This document shows, piece by piece, positions 1 to 47,782 of a DNA stretch of 64,000 nt; the stretch's first letter is position 1; each line of letters starts with the position of its first letter. The stretch spans positions 48,394 through 112,393 of the forward strand of contig CAZDDI010000006.1 in assembly GCA_964504195.1 (NCBI GenBank), in the 5' to 3' direction. The notes below the pieces were generated by a model. It was not told where the DNA came from and made no database searches. It saw nothing but the letters and a program-made list of their open reading frames with translations. The position numbers and the translations under genes are program-made. The stretch is from an uncultured Anaerolineales bacterium (GTDB lineage: Bacteria > Chloroflexota > Anaerolineae > B4-G1 > SLSP01).

Positions 1-327
1 GATCCGGCTGGGAATCTCCGCCAGCCGCCCCACCGCGGCCAACATCGTTAATGCCTCGCCCGTGCGGAAATTCCCCGGCACCAGCCCCACGCCCCACCGT
101 GAAAGCGGACGCACCGCGCGCACGGCCTTCTCATTCAGCACCAACAGCCGAAAGACCCCTTCATCCATCTCGCCATCAAGCAACCAACTCGTGGAATTTC
201 CTTGCGGATCTGCATCAATCACAATCACCCGCTTCCCACTCCGCGCCGCACCCACGGCCAGATGAATCGCTAACGTGGTCTTACCCACACCCCCTTTTTG
301 CGTCGCCAAACCCACAATCGTCCCCAT
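1..327 (-). CDS. parA: ParA/Soj family ATPase (N-terminal part; runs off the window edge; not in the ORF track)
   Basis: Manual translation from ATG 327: MGTIVGLATQKGGVGKTTLAIHLA...VIVIDADPQGNST...GLVPGN; deviant Walker A KGGVGKT and DxDPQ motif. Confidence 0.9.
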   Translation of the reverse strand, partial: MGTIVGLATQKGGVGKTTLAIHLAVGAARSGKRVIVIDADPQGNSTSWLLDGEMDEGVFRLLVLNEKAVRAVRPLSRWGVGLVPGNFRTGEALTMLAAVGRLAEIPSRI

Positions 328-346
328 ACTCCACCCCCTTGATAAT

Positions 347-532
347 TTATGCTTGCGCAGCCTCTTGCTGCACTGGCTCTGCTGGCAGCGTCTCATCCAC
401 CGGCCCTACCAGCAACGCGCCGCCAGTCCGTAACAGCTCCACCGGCTCGCGCCCATACCGCTTCACAAATGCCGCCCGCGCCTTTTCATCTTCGCATTGC
501 GGTGTAAATCCCATATAGGTTGCTCCGATCAT
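347..532 (-). CDS. Small hypothetical protein
   Basis: 61-aa ORF in the operon direction between FtsK and ParA. Confidence 0.6.
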   Translation of the reverse strand: MIGATYMGFTPQCEDEKARAAFVKRYGREPVELLRTGGALLVGPVDETLPAEPVQQEAAQA

Positions 533-542
533 TTCTATCTCC

Positions 543-565
543 TTCCGCGTATCCCCATTAGCGGA
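543..565. repeat. Copy 1 of imperfect palindrome TTCCGC(G)TA..CCCATTAGCGG
   Basis: TTCCGCGTATCCCCATTAGCGGA; related copies at 5509-5532 and 9111-9134. Confidence 0.75.
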
Positions 566-581
566 TATTTATTCAATATCC

Positions 582-648
582 CGTGTCACCACCGTGTCAC
601 CGCTTTTTCCGCCGTGTCACCGCGTGTCACCCGTGTCACCGTGTCACC
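582..648 (-). repeat. Six direct copies of CGTGTCACC (GGTGACACG on the minus strand) at the 3' end of the FtsK gene; clt/TRS-like
   Basis: GTGTCACC at 583, 594, 614, 624, 633 and 641, each preceded by C. Confidence 0.85.
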
Positions 649-2006
649 ACCCCCGCAGCCTGGACGGGGGTGGTGAGCAGCTCCGCCAACTCCGCAGTCA
701 CATACCGCGCACTCGCCGCGTCCGCCTGCCCCGTCAACCAGCCCCGGTGCTCCCATTGCCGCGCCAGCTTCGCCAGTTGGCGCTTACTGATCGCCCCCTG
801 GAACTGCTCCGCCAGCCGGTTGATGATGAAAGCCCCATCCAACTGCAAAAGTGCATAGCGCACCAGTTCCGCCTCCACCGTGTCCAATCCGGCCCGCTGC
901 TCCGGGCACAACGCCAACCCGCCCAGCAACGCCTCCCGCGCGGCCTCATCCACATAGCAAGTCTGCACTTCCTGCCAGTCCCCGCCCACAAATGTCAGGC
1001 AACGTCCCTTATCCCGCAGTTGCTCCGCCCCAGCGCGATCCAGAATCACCCGGCTATCACTATTACTCTTCGTGCGGAATGCAATCGCGGTCGGCAAATT
1101 CGCCTTCACTTGCGCGTCAATGACTTTGGTCGTCGGATGCTGCGTTCCCACCATCACACTGATCCCAAACGCCCGCCCCTTCCGCGCGAGCTCTACCAGC
1201 GTGTCCATCGTCGGCGTCCCCGCGAAGTCCGCCGCCTCATCTACCACCAACAGGATCAGCGGTAGCGTCTCATCCGCGCCCGCGTTGTACTGCTGCCAGT
1301 TGGGGACGCGCGCCCCGGCCAGCAACGCCCGCCGCCGTAATAGTTCCCCCATCGTCTGCTCGATAGCGCGCTCGCACTCTTCAATCTCGTTGGCGATGGG
1401 ATACAGCAGTTGCGGAAGTTCGCTGTACATCGTGAAATCCACTAACTTCGGATCGAGCAGCACCAGCCGAAACTCGTTCGGCCCATGCTTCGCGGCGAGC
1501 TGCACCAGCACACTCTGGATGAACGTCGTCTTCCCGAAGCCGCTTGTCCCGCCCACCAGAATCGCCCGGTGTTCGTCGCCGATGTCCAGCGTCACGGCCC
1601 CCTGCGCCCCATACCCCAGACATACTGCGTAAGGCGCAGCCGGGAGCAGCTCGGTCGTCAATGGCAGATGCGTCGGCACCGTGCACGCTGCATTTCCCAA
1701 CGCCTGCCGCTGCATCCCCGGCTGACGGCTCACCGCCACCGCCAGGCCACCCGCATCCACCACCCACACCGGATGCCCCCCGGCCATGATACTGATGCTC
1801 TCCCGCAACTCCCACGAAAGCCACCGCTCCCGCGTGACATTTCCCAAGCGTTGCATATCCAGCGCAAACACACAATACTCCGGGAAGACAAACCCCGTCG
1901 CTTCTGGCACCACATACCCGCCCTGCTGCGGCCGCTCCAACAGCCACCCCTGCGTGCGCAGCGCCCGCAACACCGCTTCCCAATACGTCTCGATCTCACG
2001 CATCAT
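636..2006 (-). CDS. FtsK/SpoIIIE family DNA translocase (TraB-like)
   Basis: Walker A GGTSGFGKT, LLDPK, Walker B LLVVDEAAD, RKGRAFGISVMVGTQHP, GAEQL..KG; possible C-terminal winged helix. Confidence 0.92.
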   Translation of the reverse strand: MMREIETYWEAVLRALRTQGWLLERPQQGGYVVPEATGFVFPEYCVFALDMQRLGNVTRERWLSWELRESISIMAGGHPVWVVDAGGLAVAVSRQPGMQRQALGNAACTVPTHLPLTTELLPAAPYAVCLGYGAQGAVTLDIGDEHRAILVGGTSGFGKTTFIQSVLVQLAAKHGPNEFRLVLLDPKLVDFTMYSELPQLLYPIANEIEECERAIEQTMGELLRRRALLAGARVPNWQQYNAGADETLPLILLVVDEAADFAGTPTMDTLVELARKGRAFGISVMVGTQHPTTKVIDAQVKANLPTAIAFRTKSNSDSRVILDRAGAEQLRDKGRCLTFVGGDWQEVQTCYVDEAAREALLGGLALCPEQRAGLDTVEAELVRYALLQLDGAFIINRLAEQFQGAISKRQLAKLARQWEHRGWLTGQADAASARYVTAELAELLTTPVQAAGVVTR

Positions 2007-2028
2007 TCACCCCCCGTCTCATGGCGCA

Positions 2029-2250
2029 TCAATGCGACACTAATGCCGCGCCCTCTATGTCTTTAGCATCAGTGCCACATTGATGCAGAGCGTCTTCCAC
2101 AACGACTACATCTAGGCGAAGACCGGCTTTTGCGAGTGTCCAGCGCAGAATGTTAGCACAACTGCGCTCACCCCAAATCATATTTGATTCCTGCTCCAAA
2201 ATCGGCACCATTGCCTCGGCTGCTTTCTCAATCATTTCCTCGTTGTTCAT
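2029..2250 (-). CDS. Hypothetical protein
   Basis: 73-aa ORF, more AT-rich than its neighbours, RBS-like GGAGG upstream. Confidence 0.55.
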   Translation of the reverse strand: MNNEEMIEKAAEAMVPILEQESNMIWGERSCANILRWTLAKAGLRLDVVVVEDALHQCGTDAKDIEGAALVSH

Positions 2251-2267
2251 AGTTCCTCCAATTCCGC

Positions 2268-2507
2268 CTAACCGTTAGACTTCAGCGGCGCGGCGTCGGT
2301 AACCGGTTCGCTGAGTGTGCCTGCTGTAGCCGCGTCCGCTGCAACTAGGCGAAGCCGCATTTGAAAACAATCTCGATGCGGATGAGCACAATACAGATAG
2401 TGATGTACTGGCGTGCGTTGCAGATACTTACAGCCCGTAGACGCACAACCTAAAACCCGCCAACCAGTTACCGGGCAGATTTGTGGAAATACTGAGTGCT
2501 CATCCAT
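2268..2507 (-). CDS. Small Cys/His-rich hypothetical protein
   Basis: CPVTG..GCASTGCKY..HHYLYCAHPHRDC; start codon uncertain. Confidence 0.4.
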   Translation of the reverse strand: MDEHSVFPQICPVTGWRVLGCASTGCKYLQRTPVHHYLYCAHPHRDCFQMRLRLVAADAATAGTLSEPVTDAAPLKSNG

Positions 2508-2529
2508 AATGATTCCGCCTAACACGCGC

Positions 2530-3582
2530 TTAACCCGCGTGCCCCCCGATCACCCGCCACTCCGCCTCAATCGCGTCCGCGATAGGCGCAGGCAACACCC
2601 CCGCCGCTTTCGCGTGGCGGATGCTCCGAAATTCCCGTACCTGGCCCAGCCCCGGCGCGCGGCGCTCCGGCTGGGACTCGCTCACCGTCTTACCCGATGG
2701 ACGGCCCGCGCGCACCAGCATAATGCTCTGATCGCGCTCCGTCACCGCCGATTGCTCTTCCGGCGAGGGCAGCGCCGCCTGCGTATACTCCAACACCGGC
2801 CCCCACGAGCGTCCCGGCAACGCCACACCCCCATTCAACATAATGATCTCCCGCTCCTGCGGGCCGAACTTCACCACCCGCGCCCGCTTTTCTGCGACCC
2901 CCAATAGCCGCCATACCCCTACCAGCAACACCACCGCCATCAACCCGGTGAATACCAGCGGCGCCCACGCCTTCACAGAATTCACCTGCTCCGCGCGCAC
3001 CAGCGATAACTGCTCCTGCTCCACGCGCACCGCCTGGAGCGTGCCCACCGCCTGCAACGCCTGCACCGTCGCCGTAGCCGCCACCGCCCGCGCTTCAGCC
3101 GTGGCCGTGGCCTGCTCTGCGAACACAATCGCCGAGACCGTCGCGGTAGCCTGCGCCGCCTGCGCCGTAGCATAAGCCTGTTGCTGCTGATACCACGCCG
3201 TAGCGGTAGCCTGGGCCTGCTGCGCCTCCACCGTCGTCTGCCATGCCGTAGCCGTAGCCTGGGCCTGCTGCGCCTCCACCGTCGTCTGCCAGGCCCACGC
3301 CTCAGCCGTAGCCGTAGCCTGCACGGCAATCGCCGTAGCCGTTTGCAGCCCATACAACGCGGCGAGCGTGGCCTCCGCTGCGCGCCGCTCCTGCTCCGCG
3401 CGCACCGTATCCACATACAAATCCACCTGGGCTTGCTCAATAGTAGGTTGCAGTGCCGCCGAGGTTACGACAGGCGGCGAGATCATAGCCGGCGTCAACG
3501 TCAACGCGGTATCATTACACGCCATCAGCAACCCGATCAACACGCTCCACACCAGCCCCACCCAGCCGCGCTTTGTCTGCAT
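2530..3582 (-). CDS. Putative lipoprotein/membrane protein with A/Q/T-rich helical repeats
   Basis: Likely start ATG 3582 (MQTKRGWVGLVWSVLIGLLMAC, lipobox-like); duplicated AWQTTVEAQQAQATAT; TM segment WAPLVFTGLMAVVLLVGVW. Confidence 0.75.
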   Translation of the reverse strand: MQTKRGWVGLVWSVLIGLLMACNDTALTLTPAMISPPVVTSAALQPTIEQAQVDLYVDTVRAEQERRAAEATLAALYGLQTATAIAVQATATAEAWAWQTTVEAQQAQATATAWQTTVEAQQAQATATAWYQQQQAYATAQAAQATATVSAIVFAEQATATAEARAVAATATVQALQAVGTLQAVRVEQEQLSLVRAEQVNSVKAWAPLVFTGLMAVVLLVGVWRLLGVAEKRARVVKFGPQEREIIMLNGGVALPGRSWGPVLEYTQAALPSPEEQSAVTERDQSIMLVRAGRPSGKTVSESQPERRAPGLGQVREFRSIRHAKAAGVLPAPIADAIEAEWRVIGGHAG

Positions 3583-3586
3583 CACC

Positions 3587-4042
3587 TCATACCTCCGGAT
3601 ACCACACCGCATCTTCACGCGGCGACACCGGGAGCGACCGTTGGGGATGGGGTGCTTGCATATCCCGCAACATACTGAGCACCTGGAGCTGCACCAACTG
3701 CTGCACCAGCGCTTCCGTGCCCCCTGCGGCGAGTTCTGCGCGCGCCGGGTTGTCTCCAAGTCGCTTCCAGCCCGCATTCGGCCCAGACGCCCACTGCGCC
3801 CGCTGCGCCCGCTGCACCCGTAGACGTAGCCAGACATACCCCCCCATCACCGCCAGCAACCCGACAATCACCAGACCCAGGGTCAACACCAACCCCGCGC
3901 TAGAAGCCGCCGCCGTGTGCTGCGCCGTGAGCGCCACCTGCGCCTCCAACACCCGGGCGTGATTCGCCTGGATGCTCGCCACCGCGAACCCGCCACCCAC
4001 CAGCAAAGCCAATACCACAATCAGCCCAATTAAAAATGTCAT
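3587..4042 (-). CDS. Two-TM membrane protein
   Basis: Two hydrophobic helices; adjoins the next ORF start. Confidence 0.7.
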   Translation of the reverse strand: MTFLIGLIVVLALLVGGGFAVASIQANHARVLEAQVALTAQHTAAASSAGLVLTLGLVIVGLLAVMGGYVWLRLRVQRAQRAQWASGPNAGWKRLGDNPARAELAAGGTEALVQQLVQLQVLSMLRDMQAPHPQRSLPVSPREDAVWYPEV

Positions 4043-4149
4043 CTATCACCCCCACCTGCTTGCCTTTCCCCCGGCCCTGTGCGATAATAAAAGTGGATCA
4101 GCGACCACCTGTATCCACCCCCCAAGGCCCACCGCCCCACCGGTGGGCC

Positions 4150-4731
4150 TCATTCTTTTTCTGCCAACCGTACCAGCGATTCAGCAATCACCGCCAACAA
4201 GCGCACCTGCACTTCCGCCTCCGTCGCCCCGTCATCAAACAAATCCAGGGCTATATCAATACGCCGAATTTGTCGCCCACCCCATAACGGCGGCGCTGGC
4301 TCATGCTCATCTACAATCCGCTCCTCTTCACCCATCGCCACGCACCGCACCGCAACACTCTCCGCAGCCTGCGCCAACCACAGCGCCACATTATGCCGCG
4401 TCGGTACAGGATAAGTATGCTTGTCCAACTCCACCACAATATCCCCACCATCAGCATCACGGTGTAGTTGCACCTTGAACACGAATTTCTGATCGAACGC
4501 CCGAAATTCCACGCGCGCCCACCACCACTCATCCAGGCAATAGAAAACTTCTGGATTCAATGCTGCTAACTCCGCGCTAGATAACTCCATCTCGCACCGC
4601 ACAAAGTCCAGAATAACCGCCTTCATCGCAGCCACCTTAGCAGCCGCCTCCGCCTCTTGCGCCATCAAATACGCCTGCTCTTGCGCCAATAACTCCCGCC
4701 CCTGCCGTAAAATCTTATCTAACCCTGCCAT
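4150..4731 (-). CDS. Hypothetical protein
   Basis: 193-aa ORF with RBS; followed by the hairpin AGGCCCACCG/CGGTGGGCCT at 4125-4150. Confidence 0.7.
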   Translation of the reverse strand: MAGLDKILRQGRELLAQEQAYLMAQEAEAAAKVAAMKAVILDFVRCEMELSSAELAALNPEVFYCLDEWWWARVEFRAFDQKFVFKVQLHRDADGGDIVVELDKHTYPVPTRHNVALWLAQAAESVAVRCVAMGEEERIVDEHEPAPPLWGGRQIRRIDIALDLFDDGATEAEVQVRLLAVIAESLVRLAEKE

Positions 4732-4741
4732 CGTGATCCTC

Positions 4742-4966
4742 CTATCCTAAATCTTCCGGTCTAATCGGAGCGCCCACATTGCTCAGCAGCCAGGCGATCC
4801 GCTGCAACTCATGCAACGCCTGCGCCTGGCGTCGCAACGTCTCCGTCCGATCCAACGCCATCCCCTCCACCAGCGGCGTCAGCAGCCGGATGCCGCGCAT
4901 CGCAGCCTCGGCGGCCTGATCGCGCACCTCCTTCGCTGCATTCGGCCACGGCCGGCGTCCGGTCAT
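4742..4966 (-). CDS. Hypothetical protein (74 aa)
   Basis: ATG 4966 overlaps the TGA of the upstream ORF (ATGA coupling). Confidence 0.65.
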   Translation of the reverse strand: MTGRRPWPNAAKEVRDQAAEAAMRGIRLLTPLVEGMALDRTETLRRQAQALHELQRIAWLLSNVGAPIRPEDLG

Positions 4967-5268
4967 CGCCCCTCCCGCGCCAACTGCTGCGCCCGGCGGC
5001 GCCGCTGCACATGCCGCCACCACGAGCCGAGTACCATCCAAAAGCCAGAGGCCGCAAACGCCCCTAGCATCCCCAGCGCACACGGCCACGCCACCACCGC
5101 CATCGCGCCCAGCGTTACCGCAGTCCCCACCACCACGAGCAACGCCGTATACCCCTCGTCATAGCCATGCTGCTCCAACCACGCCACCACCAGGTTGTAA
5201 ATAAAACCAAAGCCAAAAAGCAGCCCATAAATCAGCCCGATCTTGTCCCAATTTGTCACAGATTCCAT
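4963..5268 (-). CDS. Small multi-TM membrane protein
   Basis: Three hydrophobic segments. Confidence 0.7.
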   Translation of the reverse strand: MESVTNWDKIGLIYGLLFGFGFIYNLVVAWLEQHGYDEGYTALLVVVGTAVTLGAMAVVAWPCALGMLGAFAASGFWMVLGSWWRHVQRRRRAQQLAREGR

Positions 5269-5296
5269 GTTTGCTCATCCTCACCTTACAATGAAT

Positions 5297-5482
5297 TTAA
5301 CCTGAACGCTCGAACAACTGCCGTTGCGCGGGAGTCTCATTCACAAACTGCAACACATACGCATCCACTCGCCGCTCCAACTCCCTGGCCCGCGCCAACG
5401 CCGTGCGCGTGCGAACCGTAAAAAACTCTTGCTGCGCCTCGCGCATCTCACGCACCAGAGCTACAAACTCGGTCTGCTTCAT
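5297..5482 (-). CDS. Small phage/ICE-type hypothetical protein
   Basis: MKQTEFVALVREMREAQQEFF.. helical ORF with a purine-rich RBS. Confidence 0.65.
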   Translation of the reverse strand: MKQTEFVALVREMREAQQEFFTVRTRTALARARELERRVDAYVLQFVNETPAQRQLFERSG

Positions 5483-5508
5483 CCCCTTCCCCTCCGCACC
5501 TTAAAACC

Positions 5509-5532
5509 TTCCGCTAATTCCCATTAGCGGAA
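5509..5532. repeat. Perfect palindrome TTCCGCTAAT-TCCC-ATTAGCGGAA immediately after the recombinase stop
   Basis: 10-bp arms with a 4-bp centre; core shared with 543-565 and 9111-9134. Confidence 0.8.
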
Positions 5533-5537
5533 CATAA

Positions 5538-6917
5538 TTACCGCTTACCGCGGCGCTGCCGCGGCGCCGCCGGTTGCGCCTCTGCGCTGGCCGTAGCCGC
5601 CGCCAAAATCTCCATGAGCGGCGCGCTGGGATTCTCAGCCGCCATATCCACCCAATCAATATACGCGCCGGTGATCTTAGAATCCGCGTGCCCCATGCTA
5701 TACGCCAGCACCTCCCGGTTCACATCCTTGCCCTTTTTCTCCACATACAACGTGGCGTAAGTGTGCCGGAGCGCGTGGCAGCTCACCCCCTCGCGCTTCA
5801 GCCCCGCCGCCTCCAGATACACATCCACCCGCTGGCGAATCGAGCGCTGACTTAACCGCGTGCCCCAGTCATCCCCGCGATGCAACGACACAAACAACGC
5901 GGTCTCATTGAACTTGTACAGCGCCCGCATCCGCAACCACATATCCAGTTCCGTCTGCATCTCCGGGCGCAGAATAATCGTGCGCGGCTTATCGCCCTTG
6001 CCCAGCAGCTGTAGCGTGCCCTGCTCGCCCCGCGCATTGGGTTCGTAATCTTCCAGATTCAACCGCTGCACCTCAATATTCCGCAACCCATGCAACATCA
6101 TCAAATCAATCATCACCCGATCGCGCACCGCTGCCGCCTTCTTATCGGGATTGTCGGCGTTCAAATACACCCCCACCACCGTCGCCAGCAAACGCTGGGC
6201 CTGCCGCTCAGTGAGCGCCTTGATCTTCTCCACTGCCGACCGCTGATCTTGCGGCATCCGCACCACCGTGTCCATATCCTCCAGCGGATTCCCATAAGTG
6301 AGCCGCCGCTTCCTGGTGAAGGTGAAAAATGTGTTCAGGCTCGAGCGCTTCTTGCCCAACGTGGCCGGGCTATAACTGCCATCCGTGGCGCGCGGATTGC
6401 GCGAACCGGTATACTGCGCGTGCCCCGGCGCTACCAGATGCTCCATGAACGCCTGCGTCACTTCGGGCAACACCAGCAACAGCGGAATCCCCTCCGCCGT
6501 CTCCTGCTCCAAGCGCTCCCACAGCGCCCACAACGCCTCTGGGCCAGCAAACCACTCCGGGAGGGGCGGCAACTCCTGCTCTACCAGCCAGCGCAAAAAC
6601 TGCTCGGCATCGCTCAGGTAAGATTCCACTGTGCGCGGCGAGGGGCGCCGCTTGCGCGGGGCTACATTCTGCATAATCCAGGCTTCAAACGCCTCTAAAA
6701 TCTGTGGAATATCCGCACTCGTCACCGGCGTGGTGGGGTTGATGCCCTGCCAGACCTGCGGCGTCCCGCTGGGGCGGGTGGGGCGTTCGGCCAGCGTCGT
6801 CACCTCATCGCCGCGGGCGGGCACATCCACCACCCCCGCCGAGCCGAACAAGTCGGTAGCTGCGACCTCGACAAACTCAACGTCTATCACATCCACATCT
6901 GGTTGCTGCATCGTCAC
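5538..6917 (-). CDS. Tyrosine recombinase/integrase (XerC-like fold)
   Basis: Catalytic set intact: GLRNIE (R), GKGDK (K), HALRH (HxxR), MGHAD (H), GAY (Y); N-terminal SAM-like region. Confidence 0.93.
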   Translation of the reverse strand: MTMQQPDVDVIDVEFVEVAATDLFGSAGVVDVPARGDEVTTLAERPTRPSGTPQVWQGINPTTPVTSADIPQILEAFEAWIMQNVAPRKRRPSPRTVESYLSDAEQFLRWLVEQELPPLPEWFAGPEALWALWERLEQETAEGIPLLLVLPEVTQAFMEHLVAPGHAQYTGSRNPRATDGSYSPATLGKKRSSLNTFFTFTRKRRLTYGNPLEDMDTVVRMPQDQRSAVEKIKALTERQAQRLLATVVGVYLNADNPDKKAAAVRDRVMIDLMMLHGLRNIEVQRLNLEDYEPNARGEQGTLQLLGKGDKPRTIILRPEMQTELDMWLRMRALYKFNETALFVSLHRGDDWGTRLSQRSIRQRVDVYLEAAGLKREGVSCHALRHTYATLYVEKKGKDVNREVLAYSMGHADSKITGAYIDWVDMAAENPSAPLMEILAAATASAEAQPAAPRQRRGKR

Positions 6918-7081
6918 ACCCCCACCAGGGGGAGAGCGTCACCCCAATGGACGCTCTCCCCAGCCACAAGGAGGAAACCCGACCCGCGCAACGCGAGCCA
7001 CGCCCCGCTTGGAGACTCGAACTCCACCCGGCGACCCTTGCGGAGCACCCGTACCAAAGCTGCCTCAAAAGCGGTCTGCAT
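6914..7081 (-). CDS. Small hypothetical protein (55 aa; not in the ORF track)
   Basis: MQTAFEAALVRVLRKGRRVEF...; its TGA overlaps the GTG start of the recombinase. Confidence 0.5.
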   Translation of the reverse strand: MQTAFEAALVRVLRKGRRVEFESPSGAWLALRGSGFLLVAGESVHWGDALPLVGV

Positions 7082-7187
7082 CCCGCCGCTCCCGTCTGCC
7101 AGCGCTCACCCACAACGCCGCATACAACAACACCGCTACCGCACCCACCACCACCCCCGCGCCAAAAGCCAGCAGCAGCCCGCTCAC
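7065..7187 (-). CDS. Small single-TM protein (40 aa; not in the ORF track)
   Basis: MSGLLLAFGAGVVVGAVAVLLYAALW..; GTG overlaps the upstream TGA. Confidence 0.5.
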   Translation of the reverse strand: MSGLLLAFGAGVVVGAVAVLLYAALWVSAGRRERRDADRF

Positions 7188-7405
7188 TGCACACCGCCTG
7201 CGGTGGTCGCCGCCCCGGGAAACGCCCCCAACGGTAACGCCCCGCGCTGCTCCAAAGCCTCGCGCAGCAAGCGCACCGCCATAATCCGCGCATCCTCAAT
7301 CCCCTGGCGCCGCGTCTCATTTCCCAAAGCCACTGAAATTTCCACATCAAATCCAACAGATCGTGAAAGGGTTATTTTTGCAGGGATTCGCCATACATCC
7401 TTCAT
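7184..7405 (-). CDS. First gene of the leftward operon; possible small regulator
   Basis: 73 aa, RBS GGAGG, divergent from the XRE repressor; function inferred from position only. Confidence 0.55.
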   Translation of the reverse strand: MKDVWRIPAKITLSRSVGFDVEISVALGNETRRQGIEDARIMAVRLLREALEQRGALPLGAFPGAATTAGGVQ

Positions 7406-7422
7406 GTGTACCTCCCGTAATG

Positions 7423-7520
7423 CTTACAACTGTAAGTAGTATATATCCACTTGCAGTTGTAAGCACATGATAAATGACCCATATTTTATATGACATTCAT
7501 CCATCGCTTACCACTGTAAG
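7423..7520. promoter_or_regulatory. Divergent promoter region with three operator palindromes CTTACA-NN-TGTAAG
   Basis: CTTACAACTGTAAG 7423-7436, CTTGCAGTTGTAAG 7450-7463, CTTACCACTGTAAG 7507-7520. Confidence 0.8.
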
Positions 7521-7538
7521 TGATTAAAAGTGTAAACT

Positions 7539-7985
7539 ATGATTATGTCAGACTTTACAGATTGGATAAAAGAAGAACTTACTCTTCGAGGATGGACTCA
7601 AAACGACCTTGCGCGAAGAGCTAATATATCTTCTGGGGGGTTGTCATTGATTATGACAGAACAACGGGGGATAACCGCAAGTGTATGCAGGTCTATCTCA
7701 CGCGCATTGAAACTGCCAGAGGAGGAAGTCTTCCGCCGGGCGGGGCTGCTCAGCGACAAAAAAACGCCCATCGTTGCCGATGAGCGTGAAAAACTAAGCG
7801 TGAAAATAATGCTGGATCTACTGAAACACCTTAGCCAACTCGATGAACGCGAACAACAAGATGTTCTGGCCTACGTTCTACGATCACAACAGCATACGGA
7901 CGCGCGTGTACCACAGGTGCGCGGCAAATCGCGCGATACCGCACCCACCCACAAAACCCTCGCGGCCACCAGCGATAGTGAATGA
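7539..7985 (+). CDS. XRE/CI-like HTH transcriptional repressor
   Basis: WIKEELTLRGWTQNDLARRANISSGGLSLIM..RG is a typical HTH_3 pattern. Confidence 0.88.
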   Translation: MIMSDFTDWIKEELTLRGWTQNDLARRANISSGGLSLIMTEQRGITASVCRSISRALKLPEEEVFRRAGLLSDKKTPIVADEREKLSVKIMLDLLKHLSQLDEREQQDVLAYVLRSQQHTDARVPQVRGKSRDTAPTHKTLAATSDSE

Positions 7986-8106
7986 GCAAGACCAACCAAA
8001 TTGTCAACGTATGCAGCCAGTGTTTTATAGAACGCATGACCTAAGTATACCCTAAATTGATCAAAAAGACACTTACAAAACCGTTAAAAATCTGTCTACA
8101 CCTGTA

Positions 8107-8697
8107 ATGAAAACTAAAACTAAATCCCGCATCCCACCCAAAAAGCGACTCACATTAGGCAATGCGCTCATCATCCTCTGCACTCTCTGTTGCTGCATCA
8201 CCTGCATCGGCACCGCCATTGATAACAGCCTGCGCAGCGCGGGGCTGCTTCCTACCCACACCCCCACGGCCACAGCTACCAATACTGCCACGCCAGGCCC
8301 TACCCGTACCCCACGCCCCACCCGTACCCCACGCCCCACCCATACGCCGCGCCCCGTCCCCACCCGCATCCCCACCCGTACCCCTATCCCCACGCCCACC
8401 CCCATCAGCGGCCCCTACGTCATCATCAGCGCAGTCAACAAAATCGCCGAGCACGTCACCCTCAGCAACCTCGGCGACCAGGCGCAAGACCTAAGCGGCT
8501 GGGTACTCGTCAGCGAACGCGGCAACCAACGCTGCCGGCTCAACGGCATTCTCCAACCCCAAACGACCCTCCGCATCTACGCCCAAACCGGCGTAGACGG
8601 CTACAACTGCGGCTTCACAGACAACATCTGGAACGACTCCGAACACGATCCAGCCGTGCTCTATAACCCAGCAGGCCAAGAAATTGATCGCTACTAA
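8107..8697 (+). CDS. Membrane-anchored lamin-tail-domain (LTD) protein with a PT-rich linker
   Basis: TM helix, (PTRT)n linker, VIISAVN..EHVTLSN.G....DLSGWVL..E LTD pattern. Confidence 0.75.
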   Translation: MKTKTKSRIPPKKRLTLGNALIILCTLCCCITCIGTAIDNSLRSAGLLPTHTPTATATNTATPGPTRTPRPTRTPRPTHTPRPVPTRIPTRTPIPTPTPISGPYVIISAVNKIAEHVTLSNLGDQAQDLSGWVLVSERGNQRCRLNGILQPQTTLRIYAQTGVDGYNCGFTDNIWNDSEHDPAVLYNPAGQEIDRY

Positions 8698-8730
8698 TCA
8701 TTTATCTCCCTATAGGAGACTCTTATTTGA

Positions 8731-9066
8731 AAAAGTGGTGAGAACGGTGAGAGTGGTGTAAATCGCAATTCTCACCGGTCTCACCGGTCTCACCACTTCG
8801 CGGGATAAGATACCCCTATAGGAATAAAAGAACCCTCCAAAAGTGACGCCATCCCTAAAAATGGCCTAAAAACAGGGGTAAAGTGGGGGAAAAAGCCCAA
8901 AAACAGGGGTAAAATGATGGGTCTCGCTTAACCCCAAAACCGGCGATTTAGATTCCTCACCACTTTTAGCGAAAATCCTCACCACTTTTGTGGTAAGAGC
9001 CTAAAAAAGTGGTGAGGAAAATTCCTCACCACTTTTAGGCTGCGCGGTCACAAAAGTGGTGAGGAA
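8731..9066. repeat. Iteron-like repeat cluster (TCCTCACCACTTTT and its complement); candidate origin
   Basis: Copies at 8953, 8975, 9005(rc), 9022, 9052(rc); near-copy at 8731; CTCACCGGT tandem at 8769-8798; no long ORF. Confidence 0.7.
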
Positions 9067-9110
9067 ACCGGTGAGGCCACCGGTGAGGCAACGCGGGAGC
9101 AGCAAACAAC

Positions 9111-9134
9111 TTCCGCGTAGTCCCATTAGCGGCA
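9111..9134. repeat. Copy 3 of the TTCCGC..CCCATTAGCGG palindrome
   Basis: TTCCGCGTAGTCCCATTAGCGGCA. Confidence 0.75.
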
Positions 9135-9174
9135 ACAAAAAACAGCCCCCAACAGGCTCTCAAGTACCTTGACA

Positions 9175-9211
9175 CAGACCACGCGGCCTGGAAAAATCCA
9201 GACCACGCGGC
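9175..9211 (+). repeat. Direct repeat CAGACCACGCGGC x2 near att; possible integrase arm-type sites
   Basis: Copies at 9175-9187 and 9199-9211. Confidence 0.6.
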
Positions 9212-9256
9212 TATAGAAAACCTCCATCCGTGAGGGCTACCCTACACCAAACCGCA

Positions 9257-9304
9257 ACACGGTTTGGGTCCGTGAGGTCCGGGGTTCGAATCCCCGCGCC
9301 CCGA
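9257..9304 (+). other. attR: 3' fragment of tRNA-Pro(TGG)
   Basis: Anticodon arm CACGG-TTTGGGT-CCGTG, T arm CGGGG-TTCGAAT-CCCCG and 3' acceptor strand CGCCCCG; the upstream sequence lacks the complementary 5' acceptor strand and a D arm. Confidence 0.85.
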
Positions 9305-9325
9305 TTGTCAGGCACAAAAAAACAA

Positions 9326-9370
9326 AATGCGTGGAATGTGATCTTTATTCACATTCCACGCATTCTGTTT
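9326..9370 (+). terminator. Intrinsic terminator downstream of the tRNA fragment
   Basis: 16-bp stem AATGCGTGGAATGTGA/TCACATTCCACGCATT followed by a T-rich run. Confidence 0.75.
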
Positions 9371-9476
9371 TTGACGGGGTTATGCTGGTACCCGTCAGAA
9401 AATTCCACTATCAGCCGAGACATGGCACTAATTTCTACCAGCACCACTAACGTCATCATGAATTTTCGGATGGGTT

Positions 9477-46915: not shown

Positions 46916-47782
46916 TTACCGCTCCACCACCTGCAACACAGCCGGCACCTGCGCAAACGAATCTATTTGCGCTGAAGTCTCCTCCGCTAACCACAGCCCC
47001 GCAGATGCGCCGCCATCAAGGTTGAGCGCAATATCCACATCCAAATCGGAATCCACCAACCACACTGCCAGTTGGTGCAAATTGAAGTACCCACGCGGCG
47101 CGATGAGGAACAACAACTGCCCGGCGCGGTCTTGTGCGATGACCGTACGGCGCGCAAGACGTCCATCATCACCATCGGCAGGGAAACCCATGACCCCACC
47201 GGGTTTGACCAGCACCGGGAAGCTCTGTACTGCATAGGCCAGCGGTTCATCTGCGTCATAGTGCCACTCGCGGAGCCAACGCACGCTGGCATCCCCATCA
47301 TCACGCACCGCTACCATGCCAGCGAAGTCAGCATAACTCACACCCTGCGGGCGGCCACGCAACACAAATAACCCCGTGAGGACATTTTCCTGCGTGAAAT
47401 ACCCTGCATTGACAACGAGCAGTCCGCCCGCTTTATTCTCCCACGCACTCACGGTCATCGGGACTTGCGGCAAGTATTCCAATTGCAACGTGAAGCGCGT
47501 CGGGTCTACACGCACCACCGTCACCCGTTCCAGACCACCGGGCAGCGAAACATCCAGGCTGCGGAACTCCAATCCGGAGCTGCTCACCTGCCAACCGGTA
47601 TCGGGCGGCAAGGGCGTCGACGTAAAAATGCCAGTAGCGGTGGAAGTCAAAGTCGGTATAGCAGTAGGTAACGGCGCGGGCGTGGTAAAGATGGGCACGG
47701 CGCAGGCCAATGCCAACAACAGCAACGCCGCAAGCCAAAGCACAATACGGCGGGATTGGGACTTGTAAGCATCAAAAGTCAT
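46916..47782 (-). CDS. Phosphodiester glycosidase (NAGPA/DUF2233) family lipoprotein
   Basis: LALAC lipobox; VNAGYF, ARRTVIA, ALNLDGGAS. Confidence 0.85.
   Translation of the reverse strand: MTFDAYKSQSRRIVLWLAALLLLALACAVPIFTTPAPLPTAIPTLTSTATGIFTSTPLPPDTGWQVSSSGLEFRSLDVSLPGGLERVTVVRVDPTRFTLQLEYLPQVPMTVSAWENKAGGLLVVNAGYFTQENVLTGLFVLRGRPQGVSYADFAGMVAVRDDGDASVRWLREWHYDADEPLAYAVQSFPVLVKPGGVMGFPADGDDGRLARRTVIAQDRAGQLLFLIAPRGYFNLHQLAVWLVDSDLDVDIALNLDGGASAGLWLAEETSAQIDSFAQVPAVLQVVER

Follow-up and report, generated by a model that had tools for sequence, protein, structure and literature searches.

The stretch of DNA described here, positions 1-9304 of a window of 64,000 nucleotides (C6:48394-112393) in a 4.9-Mb assembly of 137 contigs, is the lysogeny and early-gene arm of a prophage of about 42.5 kb. 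Within this arm lies a cassette made up of a lipoprotein gene (F1), a gene for an FtsK-like motor (F2) and an array of short direct repeats at the F2 stop codon. A first-pass annotation of the sequence had listed ParA, an FtsK gene with repeats, membrane proteins or lipoproteins, a recombinase, a repressor switch, a repeat region and a tRNA-Pro fragment, and all of these lie where it had placed them. The features of the stretch are given below, in window positions except where contig C6 is named; ORF stands for open reading frame and aa for amino acids.

1-396, minus strand: N-terminal 132 codons of the ParA partition ATPase (full gene C6:47980-48789, 269 aa)
347-532, minus strand: 61-aa ORF between the F2 array and parA, from the ORF list and the codon-model calls, without a family match
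543-566: palindrome copy 1 (about 24 bp, TTCCGC..ATTAGCGGA type), just upstream of, or overlapping, the ribosome-binding site of the 61-aa ORF
582-648, minus strand: repeat array of six units, spanning the F2 stop codon at 636-638
636-2006, minus strand: F2, an FtsK/SpoIIIE-type ATPase of 456 aa (PF01580, 1.8e-20; phrog_1358, 1.9e-57)
2029-2250, minus strand: 73-aa ORF between F1 and F2, from the ORF list and a codon-model call
2530-3582, minus strand: F1, the partner of F2; the longest ORF runs to 3837, and the likely true start at 3582 gives a lipobox protein
4150-4731, minus strand: 193-aa early-operon protein, from the ORF list and put through the Pfam, PHROGs and NCBIfam scans
4963-5268, minus strand: 101-aa membrane protein of family F10, a family also found in the related viral contig G005
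5509-5532: palindrome copy 2, perfect, TTCCGCTAAT-TCCC-ATTAGCGGAA, just downstream of the Int2 stop
5538-6917, minus strand: Int2, a 459-aa Xer-like tyrosine recombinase (PF00589, 1.5e-17; phrog_1, 1.2e-31)
7421-7521: switch region separating the leftward early operon from the repressor gene, with a palindrome of 17-bp arms at 7421-7465 and a related half-site copy at 7506-7521
7539-7985, plus strand: CI-like repressor with an N-terminal HTH_3 domain (PF01381, 1.3e-7; phrog_3 'transcriptional repressor', 2.1e-8)
8107-8697, plus strand: protein with a lamin-tail domain (LTD; PF00932, 9.8e-12) and a Pro/Thr-rich linker, either secreted or membrane-bound
8702-9090: repeat-rich non-coding arm beside attR, with 12 GGTGAG/CTCACC cores and copies of AAAAGTGGTGAGGAA in both orientations
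9111-9134: palindrome copy 3, co-oriented with copies 1 and 2
9258-9308, plus strand: attR, 51 nt that repeat the 3' part of tRNA-Pro(TGG), comprising the T-arm and acceptor end
C6:15111-15161, plus strand: attL, inside the intact tRNA-Pro(TGG) gene

The borders of the element are set by a tRNA gene. An intact tRNA-Pro(TGG) gene, which the first-pass annotation had predicted to lie upstream on the plus strand, is present at C6:15083-15158, 42.5 kb to the left of the tRNA fragment in the window. It is the sole tRNA that ARAGORN reports on contig C6, and the same program finds no complete tRNA in the window. The two sites have a 51-nt imperfect repeat in common, and the proposed integration at a tRNA thus stands; window 9258-9308 matches the 3' 48 nt of the tRNA plus three flanking bases at 46 of 51 positions. 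attL and attR are identical over their first 22 nt (CACGGTTTGGGTCCGTGAGGTC), and their T-stems differ by compensatory changes, GTGGG/CCCAC against CGGGG/CCCCG. A hairpin lies 3' of attR at 9318-9372. Since the att core is present only twice on contig C6, with up to three mismatches permitted, the element spans about 42.5 kb, and positions 1-9304 make up about 22% of it, the right-hand fifth. The gene flanking the element on the right occurs in 31 of 31 relatives, all from other genera, and the seven relative loci that were fetched have no tRNA within 1.5 kb.

Genes over C6:13-60 kb were called with a codon model trained on the same genome and then scanned against Pfam, PHROGs and NCBIfam. Between the att copies nearly all genes read leftward as one block, the exceptions being Int1, the repressor and the LTD protein. 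The leftward operon runs from Int2 through F1, F2, ParA, a ParB-like gene, a DnaG-type primase fusion and a DndC-like gene to the lysis, terminase, head and tail genes. ParA matches AAA_31 (1.6e-28), CbiA and ParA in Pfam, phrog_164 (2.8e-42) and the NCBIfam model ParA_partition, and the ParB-like gene that follows parA, outside the window, encodes 123 aa. The replication gene encodes the primase fusion of 1035 aa. Virion genes in the 33 kb outside the view of the first-pass annotation include those for the large terminase subunit TerL (phrog_38, 1.2e-71; also Terminase_6C), an SPP1-type portal (phrog_104), a MuF-like head protein, a scaffold protein, the major capsid protein (phrog_3990, 4.1e-20), the major tail protein, the tape measure protein (phrog_1535, 9.1e-40), Dit and minor tail proteins, with further tail-module matches to phrog_117, phrog_33/5577 and phrog_538. 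The endolysin (Amidase_2, 2.1e-21) adjoins small membrane proteins.

The first-pass annotation had proposed an element like the integrative and conjugative elements of actinomycetes (AICEs), and had correctly observed that the part visible to it holds no relaxase, type IV secretion system (T4SS) or capsid genes; the Pfam and PHROGs scans detect none in positions 1-9304. The AICE proposal falls with the terminase, capsid, tail and endolysin genes found further left, which are of the kind that it had itself named as contrary evidence. The element shares with AICEs a site-specific integrase, tRNA att repeats and putative clt-like repeats, but AICEs are small (about 9-24 kb) and virion-free, whereas this element is 42.5 kb long and carries TerL, portal, major capsid, tail and endolysin genes. 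It has the attributes of a siphovirus-like member of the Caudoviricetes, namely TerL, portal and major capsid genes, long-tail and lysis genes, and an integrase with att sites and a repressor switch. Judged by this gene content, the element is a siphovirus-like temperate prophage in the 3' part of tRNA-Pro(TGG), and the prophage itself is ordinary.

Two tyrosine recombinases are encoded in the element. Int1, of 351 aa (PF00589, 5.7e-40), reads rightward 140 bp from tRNA-Pro and is likely the integrase of the element. A homologue of Int1 (42% identity) adjoins tRNA-Pro(CGG) on another contig (C77:6135-7372), and Int1 can be regarded as a tRNA-Pro integrase because this homologue holds the same position beside its tRNA. 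Contig C18 has a solitary tRNA-Pro core, not part of any tRNA, at ~42360; together with the Int1-like gene on C77 it probably belongs to another integrated element, split over two contigs. Int2 lies within the early operon and adjoins neither att site, and its NCBIfam matches to XerC, XerD and XerA-like models all score under cut-off.

The motor protein F2 differs in several respects from the better known members of the FtsK superfamily. No hydrophobic segment was noticed on reading its 456-aa sequence, and no membrane domain appears in the confident AlphaFold2 model, which was built from a 33-sequence alignment and has a pLDDT (predicted local distance difference test) of 89.6. In the model, residues ~1-360 form an alpha+beta motor and residues ~376-441 a C-terminal winged helix. 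In Foldseek, about 385 columns of F2 align to the FtsK alpha+beta motor structures 6t8o and 2ius (E~1e-24; 2.9e-24 for 6t8o), and F2 matches the PDB profile of the FtsK motor with an E-value of 3.1e-41. The TcpA motor (6o1x, 5.9e-24) is as good a structural match as FtsK, and EccC and HerA are much weaker. The C-terminal domain, a winged helix predicted with confidence and folded alone with a pLDDT of 80.8, has the order helix, strand, helix, helix, wing. In isolation it matches winged helix-turn-helix domains of the MarR type, with E. coli FtsK gamma (2j5p) at rank 8 (TM-score 0.66, root-mean-square deviation 2.6 Å; MarR-type folds have equal scores) and the centromere binder AspA also among the fold matches. 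At the sequence level, 9 of 31 family members have a weak MarR_2 match and none of the 31 matches FtsK_gamma (PF09397).

Against the NCBIfam models F2 stays far under each equivalog cut-off, with 96 bits for FtsK (cut-off 1566), 92 for EssC, 75 for EccCa and 46 for plasmid_TraB (NF041214; cut-off 800), and there is no plasmid_TraB match above cut-off in the whole genome. Maximum-likelihood phylogeny of the motor core places the F2 family in a clade (support 100/99) apart from the septal FtsK and EccC-like clades, both of which the first-pass annotation had asked to be compared. The host's own FtsK proteins, of 775 aa and 806 aa, sit in the septal FtsK clade, and a TraB-like sequence from Actinoplanes forms a long, unresolved branch outside the F2 clade. 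Closest to F2 on this tree are further short proteins of the FtsK-like kind, from mobile elements and phages. Matches to annotated phages are confined to the ATPase core (residues 128-350, ~35% identity) and are to proteins of many Bacillus phages and to those annotated as 'FtsK-like DNA translocase' in Mycobacterium phages, Thibault among them. From fold prediction, profile scores and phylogeny, F2 is an FtsK-type motor with a predicted winged helix and not a member of the TraB family.

F1 combines a lipoprotein signal (LLMAC), in which the lipobox cysteine is conserved, with extracytoplasmic repeats rich in Ala, Thr and Gln (~200 aa), a single transmembrane helix, placed by alignment and hydropathy at residues ~290-312 of the long ORF, and a conserved cytoplasmic tail of ~115 aa. 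It has no match in Pfam, PHROGs, NCBIfam or PADLOC. A protein search returned ~300 homologues of F2, of which the best 120 are full length and 43-62% identical; those that are named come from metagenome-assembled genomes of Chloroflexota or Anaerolineae. A single-protein search of IMG/VR gave no close F2 relatives, and a profile search found two. About 35 related loci were gathered from assemblies, GTDB genomes, IMG/VR and JGI metagenomes. F2 directly follows F1 in all 12 loci in which both genes were called, the length of F1 across loci being ~350-400 aa. In L027, F1 was called and tblastn locates F2 after it, and in L005 the upstream gene was missed by our gene caller and the source calls place a gene for 399 aa there.

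One of the relatives is a 53-kb IMG/VR contig (G005; CheckV completeness 100%) that is colinear with the prophage. It carries TerL (phrog_2), a portal gene (2.3e-79), F1 and a ParM-like gene in place of ParA, in the order recombinase, F10, partition gene, F1-F2, recombinase, primase, terminase. Identities to the prophage proteins are 41% for MuF, 37% for the major tail protein, 43% and 55% for the tail chaperones, 33% for the primase, 38% for the Int1-like integrase and 50% for F2. The TerL of the prophage has no match in the records behind the related loci, and that of G005 belongs to a different family, phrog_2. With F1-F2 in both the prophage and G005, at least two diverged tailed phages have the cassette in their early region.

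The array at 582-648 consists of six co-oriented copies of CGTGTCACC (GGTGACACG on the gene strand) in 67 nt, one of which overlaps the stop codon. The sequence GTGTCACC is confined to this cluster, with no other copy in the 42.5-kb prophage. The 9-mer CGTGTCACC has 56 copies on both strands of the 4.9-Mb genome, which leads to an expectation of ~3e-4 in 67 nt, and the six-copy cluster is far beyond chance. When arrays were scored as at least four unit copies within 305 nt at the end of F2 homology, 26 of 32 non-redundant loci had 5-10 copies of an element-specific unit of 8-9 bp (GGTGAYASG kind). Unit density is 17.6 per kb at the F2 end and 0.71 per kb elsewhere in the loci. The units in individual loci are as follows.

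GGTGACACG: the window, L008, L033 and L039
GGTGCTACG: L003
GGTGATACG, nine copies: L013
GGTGATAGG and GGTGACAGG: L005 and L038
GGTMACAGG: L035, L037 and L040
GGTGCCACG, inverted: L007

The array is kept whichever gene comes next, be it parA, a parM-like gene, the gene for an F11 protein or a PAPS (phosphoadenosine phosphosulfate) reductase gene; the last is the case in L007, where a PAPS-reductase-like gene directly follows the F2 array. In many loci the F2 frame reads through the array, producing tails such as GDTVTRVTRGDT (L008:1899-1976, L033, L034, L039, L047 and others), and elsewhere the array follows the stop. Because the array is coding in some loci and non-coding in others, the conserved feature is the DNA and not the peptide. 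Comparison of these sequences reveals F1, F2 and the array as a conserved and apparently undescribed cassette.

The length of the array unit varies with the winged helix. In 28 loci the wing loop (GWLT to RxVT) is 8 residues long; in six (L009, L011, L012=L044, L027 and L045) it has 12. Every locus with the longer wing carries the 9-bp unit RTGAYRWSG five or six times and the 8-bp type no more than twice. The loci with the shorter wing have the 8-bp unit RT[GAC]AYASG, in at least four copies in 22 loci, and at most one copy of the 9-bp type. Those 12-residue loci that are on the motor-domain tree (L009, L011 and L012+L027) fall into three separate, well-supported subclades. Such covariation between wing length and unit length is what direct recognition of the array by the winged helix predicts. 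A finer correspondence, between residue 3 of the recognition helix (Q or R) and the last bases of the unit (CG or GG), seemed to hold in nine loci and was rejected when it failed with L036, L038, L041, L043 and L051.

The arrangement resembles several known systems without coinciding with any of them. In the traB/clt layout, an FtsK-like motor with a C-terminal winged helix-turn-helix is followed by 8-bp direct repeats at the 3' end of its gene (PMC4447253). F2 and its array are like TraB and clt of Streptomyces and other actinomycete plasmids and AICEs (pSVH1, pSAM2-type) in having a hexameric-motor-type ATPase with a winged helix, 8-bp repeats at the 3' end of the gene and integration of the element at a tRNA. 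The first-pass annotation had suggested a TraB/clt-type element; the winged helix and a 3' array of 8-9 bp units that is element-specific in homologues agree with that suggestion, and the assignment of F2 to TraB fails on its NF041214 score and on the tree. Unlike TraB, moreover, F2 lacks an N-terminal membrane domain and has the separate lipoprotein F1 as its partner. TraB elements also differ in that no Spd or kil-kor genes are present here, and the cassette lies in a 42.5-kb tailed prophage with ParA in a host that is probably a member of the Chloroflexota. Spd and RepSA/RepAM-type initiators have no family matches among the prophage proteins scanned, Spd being poorly modelled in the libraries. 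As a control, an Actinoplanes sp. locus (NZ_JBFBAJ010000016.1, L025:9418-9600) has a TraB-like ORF (NF041214, 92.5 bits) with CTGTCGCG/GTGTCGC three times and inverted GCGACAC twice directly after its stop, which reproduces the published traB/clt arrangement (PMC4447253).

Septal FtsK and SpoIIIE, acting with the FtsK orienting polar sequences (KOPS) and SpoIIIE recognition sequences (SRS), share with F2 the alpha+beta motor fold, a predicted gamma-like winged helix and G-rich words of 8 bp. Unlike septal FtsK, F2 has no membrane domain and linker, scores far below the FtsK cut-off and belongs to a separate clade. The words lie in one cluster, whereas KOPS and SRS are dispersed and polarised over the replicon, and as judged from its distribution the F2 word thus resembles clt or parS more than KOPS. 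Short, soluble FtsK/SpoIIIE-like accessory proteins of temperate phages, such as those of the Mycobacterium cluster J type (e.g. Thibault) and of Bacillus phages, are similar to F2 through phrog_1358, but they share only the ATPase core, and the short FtsK-like genes of Bacillus type and IMG/VR type that were examined lack a 3' array. The coupling protein TcpA of pCW3-type Clostridium plasmids likewise has an FtsK-like soluble motor domain; however, TcpA has membrane helices and works with the relaxase-based Tcp conjugation apparatus, genes for which are not present here.

By analogy with these systems, the cassette would most likely be a sequence-loaded pump for double-stranded DNA (dsDNA) that works like FtsK/KOPS or TraB/clt. 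The winged helix of F2 would bind the array and so load the motor onto the phage's own DNA at one defined site, following the loading logic of FtsK gamma with KOPS, SpoIIIE with SRS and TraB with clt. F1, as a bitopic lipoprotein, probably tethers F2 to the membrane through its cytoplasmic tail. It is possible that the phage genome, in replicating or episomal form, is then pumped by the motor relative to the host membrane or septum, perhaps in concert with the partition genes, ParA here or ParM-like in relatives. A less likely variant is that phage DNA might pass into a neighboring cell independently of virions, as with TraB. The reading of the stretch as a tRNA-Pro prophage arm that carries the F1-F2-array cassette as a sequence-loaded motor is held with moderate confidence.

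Several observations weigh against the sequence-loaded motor. PF09397 is undetected in F2 by sequence, and the C-terminal domain resembles MarR or AspA as much as FtsK gamma; both the binding and the translocation attributed to F2 are proposals drawn from sequence. The motifs used to count units were derived from the arrays themselves. Six of the 32 loci have no clear type-A or type-B array, with L003, L007, L046, L056 and L058 having a variant unit that both patterns miss and L014 alone having no array of any kind. In about six loci (L007, L026, L036, L047, L012/L044 and L027) the array runs opposite to the gene, which is hard to square with a loading signal of strict polarity. The array also precedes a partition NTPase gene in 5 of 13 loci, and so stands where a centromere is classically found. 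The winged helix and array are less than 100 bp apart, such that linkage or recombination alone would co-inherit both. In addition, the host is presumably filamentous, its habit, like its phylum, being taken from the labels of relatives.

In the main alternative, the array could be the centromere or operator of a partition system (type Ib with parA or type II with parM), bound by a small centromere-binding protein, with F2 as an unrelated accessory ATPase whose gene just happens to end at the array. Arrays of direct repeats upstream of par operons are an established architecture of type Ib and type II partition systems. The array precedes parA in the window, L003 and L013, in L009 and L010 it precedes a ParM-like gene (phrog_691), and AspA, itself a winged-helix centromere binder, is among the fold matches of the F2 C-terminal domain. 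The array, however, is at the F2 stop even where no par gene comes next (L005, L008 and L007), and it stays with F2 where the parM-like gene is 4 kb upstream (L026 and L012). Its unit length tracks the wing length of F2, and it directly flanks a par operon in only the 5 of 13 loci and not in all relatives. The element in the window and L007 furthermore possess a second, different array directly after parA and parB. The centromere explanation is therefore considered unlikely.

The second array of the prophage is at C6:~47530-47600 (L002:14530-14600), ~800 bp leftward of base 1 of the window, between the ParB-like gene, which it directly follows, and the primase gene. Its units are ACGGTGATATTTA, ACGGTGTTATTTA, TGGTGTTGTTTA and TGGTGTTATCTA plus an inverted copy, of the GGTG(A/T)TAT type, and it has only the GGTG core in common with the F2 array and the repeats of the arm beside attR. 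The second array is the likelier candidate for a partition site or origin.

Another option is that F1, F2 and the array form a TraB/clt-type system that moves dsDNA from cell to cell, by which the phage or capsid-less relatives spread in a conjugation-like manner within or between filaments. The architecture fits that of traB/clt, as illustrated by the Actinoplanes control and the published layout (PMC4447253), and F1 has a large extracytoplasmic domain. Elements that might lack capsids are found in the same genome, where contig C1 holds two colinear paralogous blocks at ~93,000-130,000 (partly L003 and L087) and ~352,000-301,000 (partly L085). Each contains an HTH gene, DUF6884, SSB, F1, F2 with its array, ParA, a ParB-like gene, a DnaA_N-type Rep gene and an HNH gene, followed by a gene for a protein of ~1300 aa, a T2SSE/TadA-type ATPase gene (PF00437) and TadB/C-like genes. 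The ParA proteins of the two blocks are 83% identical to each other. A block paralogue of F2 (C1:340064-341446; 31% identical) has an F1-like lipoprotein upstream and GTGTTTTAAGG seven times after its stop, and a metagenomic relative of F2 that is 22% identical (L061) has CCGTCCGGCCA four times. No terminase or capsid gene was recognised in the C1 blocks, the borders of which are undefined, and the blocks may be capsid-less integrative elements that use the same DNA pump, satellites, or phages that are not recognisable as such. No att repeats were found for the two C1 elements, where a tRNA-Gln lies at one end and integrases at 167 kb and 258 kb. The region C1:146-166 kb was considered as a run of phage structural genes and rejected, since it holds primase/polymerase and helicase genes.

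Against cell-to-cell transfer, the element in the window has a full set of virion and lysis genes, and F2 is not TraB by either score or tree position. Spd-like genes are not seen among the proteins scanned, nor are relaxase, VirB4 or coupling-protein families detected among the prophage proteins in Pfam, PHROGs or NCBIfam. The borders and capsid-less status of the C1 blocks are unproven, and F2 and a T2SSE/Tad-type ATPase never share a contig in eight other genomes, in which the contigs are short. Transfer of this kind by the cassette is quite improbable. A broader form of the idea, in which a Chloroflexota lineage of elements (tailed temperate phages together with apparently capsid-less TadA/T2SSE elements of 40-50 kb) would use a split TraB-like machine to move dsDNA across membranes or septa without a capsid, must be regarded as a long shot. 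If true, it would mean that conjugation-like or 'spreading' transfer exists outside the Actinobacteria and is common to phages and integrative elements.

A composite locus, in which a plasmid-like integrative element (Int2, F1, F2, ParA and primase) sits in or beside an unrelated prophage, would account for the presence of two tyrosine recombinases (Int1 beside attL, Int2 within the window) and for the F1-F2-ParA module on contig C1 that has no recognisable phage genes; yet the att core occurs just twice on the contig, the genes from the switch region to the tail form one co-oriented block, and the independent viral contig G005 keeps the same order, which makes a composite very improbable. It is scarcely credible that F2 is a defence or exclusion ATPase of the HerA, SspH or DndH-like kind, carried as a prophage moron with regulatory repeats, since its PADLOC matches to SspH (8.3e-33), mad8 and HerA, like its PHROGs category of 'moron, auxiliary metabolic gene and host takeover', are offset by the limitation of the matches to the shared FtsK-type motor domain at the C-terminus of proteins of 1,500-1,800 aa, by the lack of adjacent partner genes of those systems and by the place of F2 in the early replication and partition block and not in a moron position.

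With the sequence-loaded motor as the favored reading, the cassette bears on a group of phage genes that has been annotated widely. Hundreds of temperate phages from Bacillus, Mycobacterium and Streptomyces, and one from Chloroflexus, have genes annotated as FtsK/SpoIIIE-like, for which no role is established. Such genes in Streptomyces phages have been loosely ascribed to replication (PMC11536984), and an FtsK/SpoIIIE gene was noted in a putative Chloroflexus phage (PMC8597652). A limited check of full-text literature found no description of an F1-type partner, a cognate array or covariation of wing and unit for phage FtsK-like genes. The F2 family offers three things that those phages have not supplied, a defined cis site beside the gene, a conserved membrane partner and a natural swap of specificity (8-aa wing with 8-bp unit, 12-aa wing with 9-bp unit). 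The traB/clt gene layout reaches beyond the conjugative elements of actinomycetes, and a search for AICEs by this layout alone will consequently also catch prophages. The annotation also gains a complete-looking tRNA-Pro prophage in a probable Chloroflexota genome, from a phylum with very few characterised phages.

The remaining features of the arm are those of lysogeny control and integration. Candidate operators are the palindromes of the switch region, at 7421-7465 and 7506-7521, between the repressor gene and the leftward early operon from which it diverges. The LTD protein gene is beside the repressor on the lysogeny strand and contains six PT-rich repeats of 18 nt; its product matches the PADLOC candidate-defence model 'SNc+LTD' (8.5e-12) and is probably a lysogeny-expressed moron. 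The 12 GGTGAG/CTCACC cores in 8702-9090 compare with 0.95 per kb over the whole window, those 12 counted in, and this arm may provide arm-type sites for the integrase or an origin, as far as its repeats indicate. Rfam and promoter/terminator scans of the region gave nothing over threshold. The three ~24-bp palindromes are co-oriented, with GCGGAAG after each, and could serve as the operator of a dimeric regulator or form an RNA hairpin.

Two further groups of genes stand out in the part of the prophage to the left of the window. The early region encodes a DndC-like protein of the PAPS-reductase family (1.7e-31) at C6:43070-44281 (L002:10070-11281) and a DUF5131/radical-SAM-like protein at C6:41961-42752 (L002:8961-9752), which together may form a DNA-modification module. 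At C6:30066-33122 (L001:17066-20000 and L002:1-122), a sigma factor of the extracytoplasmic function type (Sigma70_r2/r4) is encoded between two secreted proteins of 373 aa and 507 aa. This trio is inserted between the genes for the MuF-like head protein and the scaffold protein, where a regulatory moron would not usually be found.

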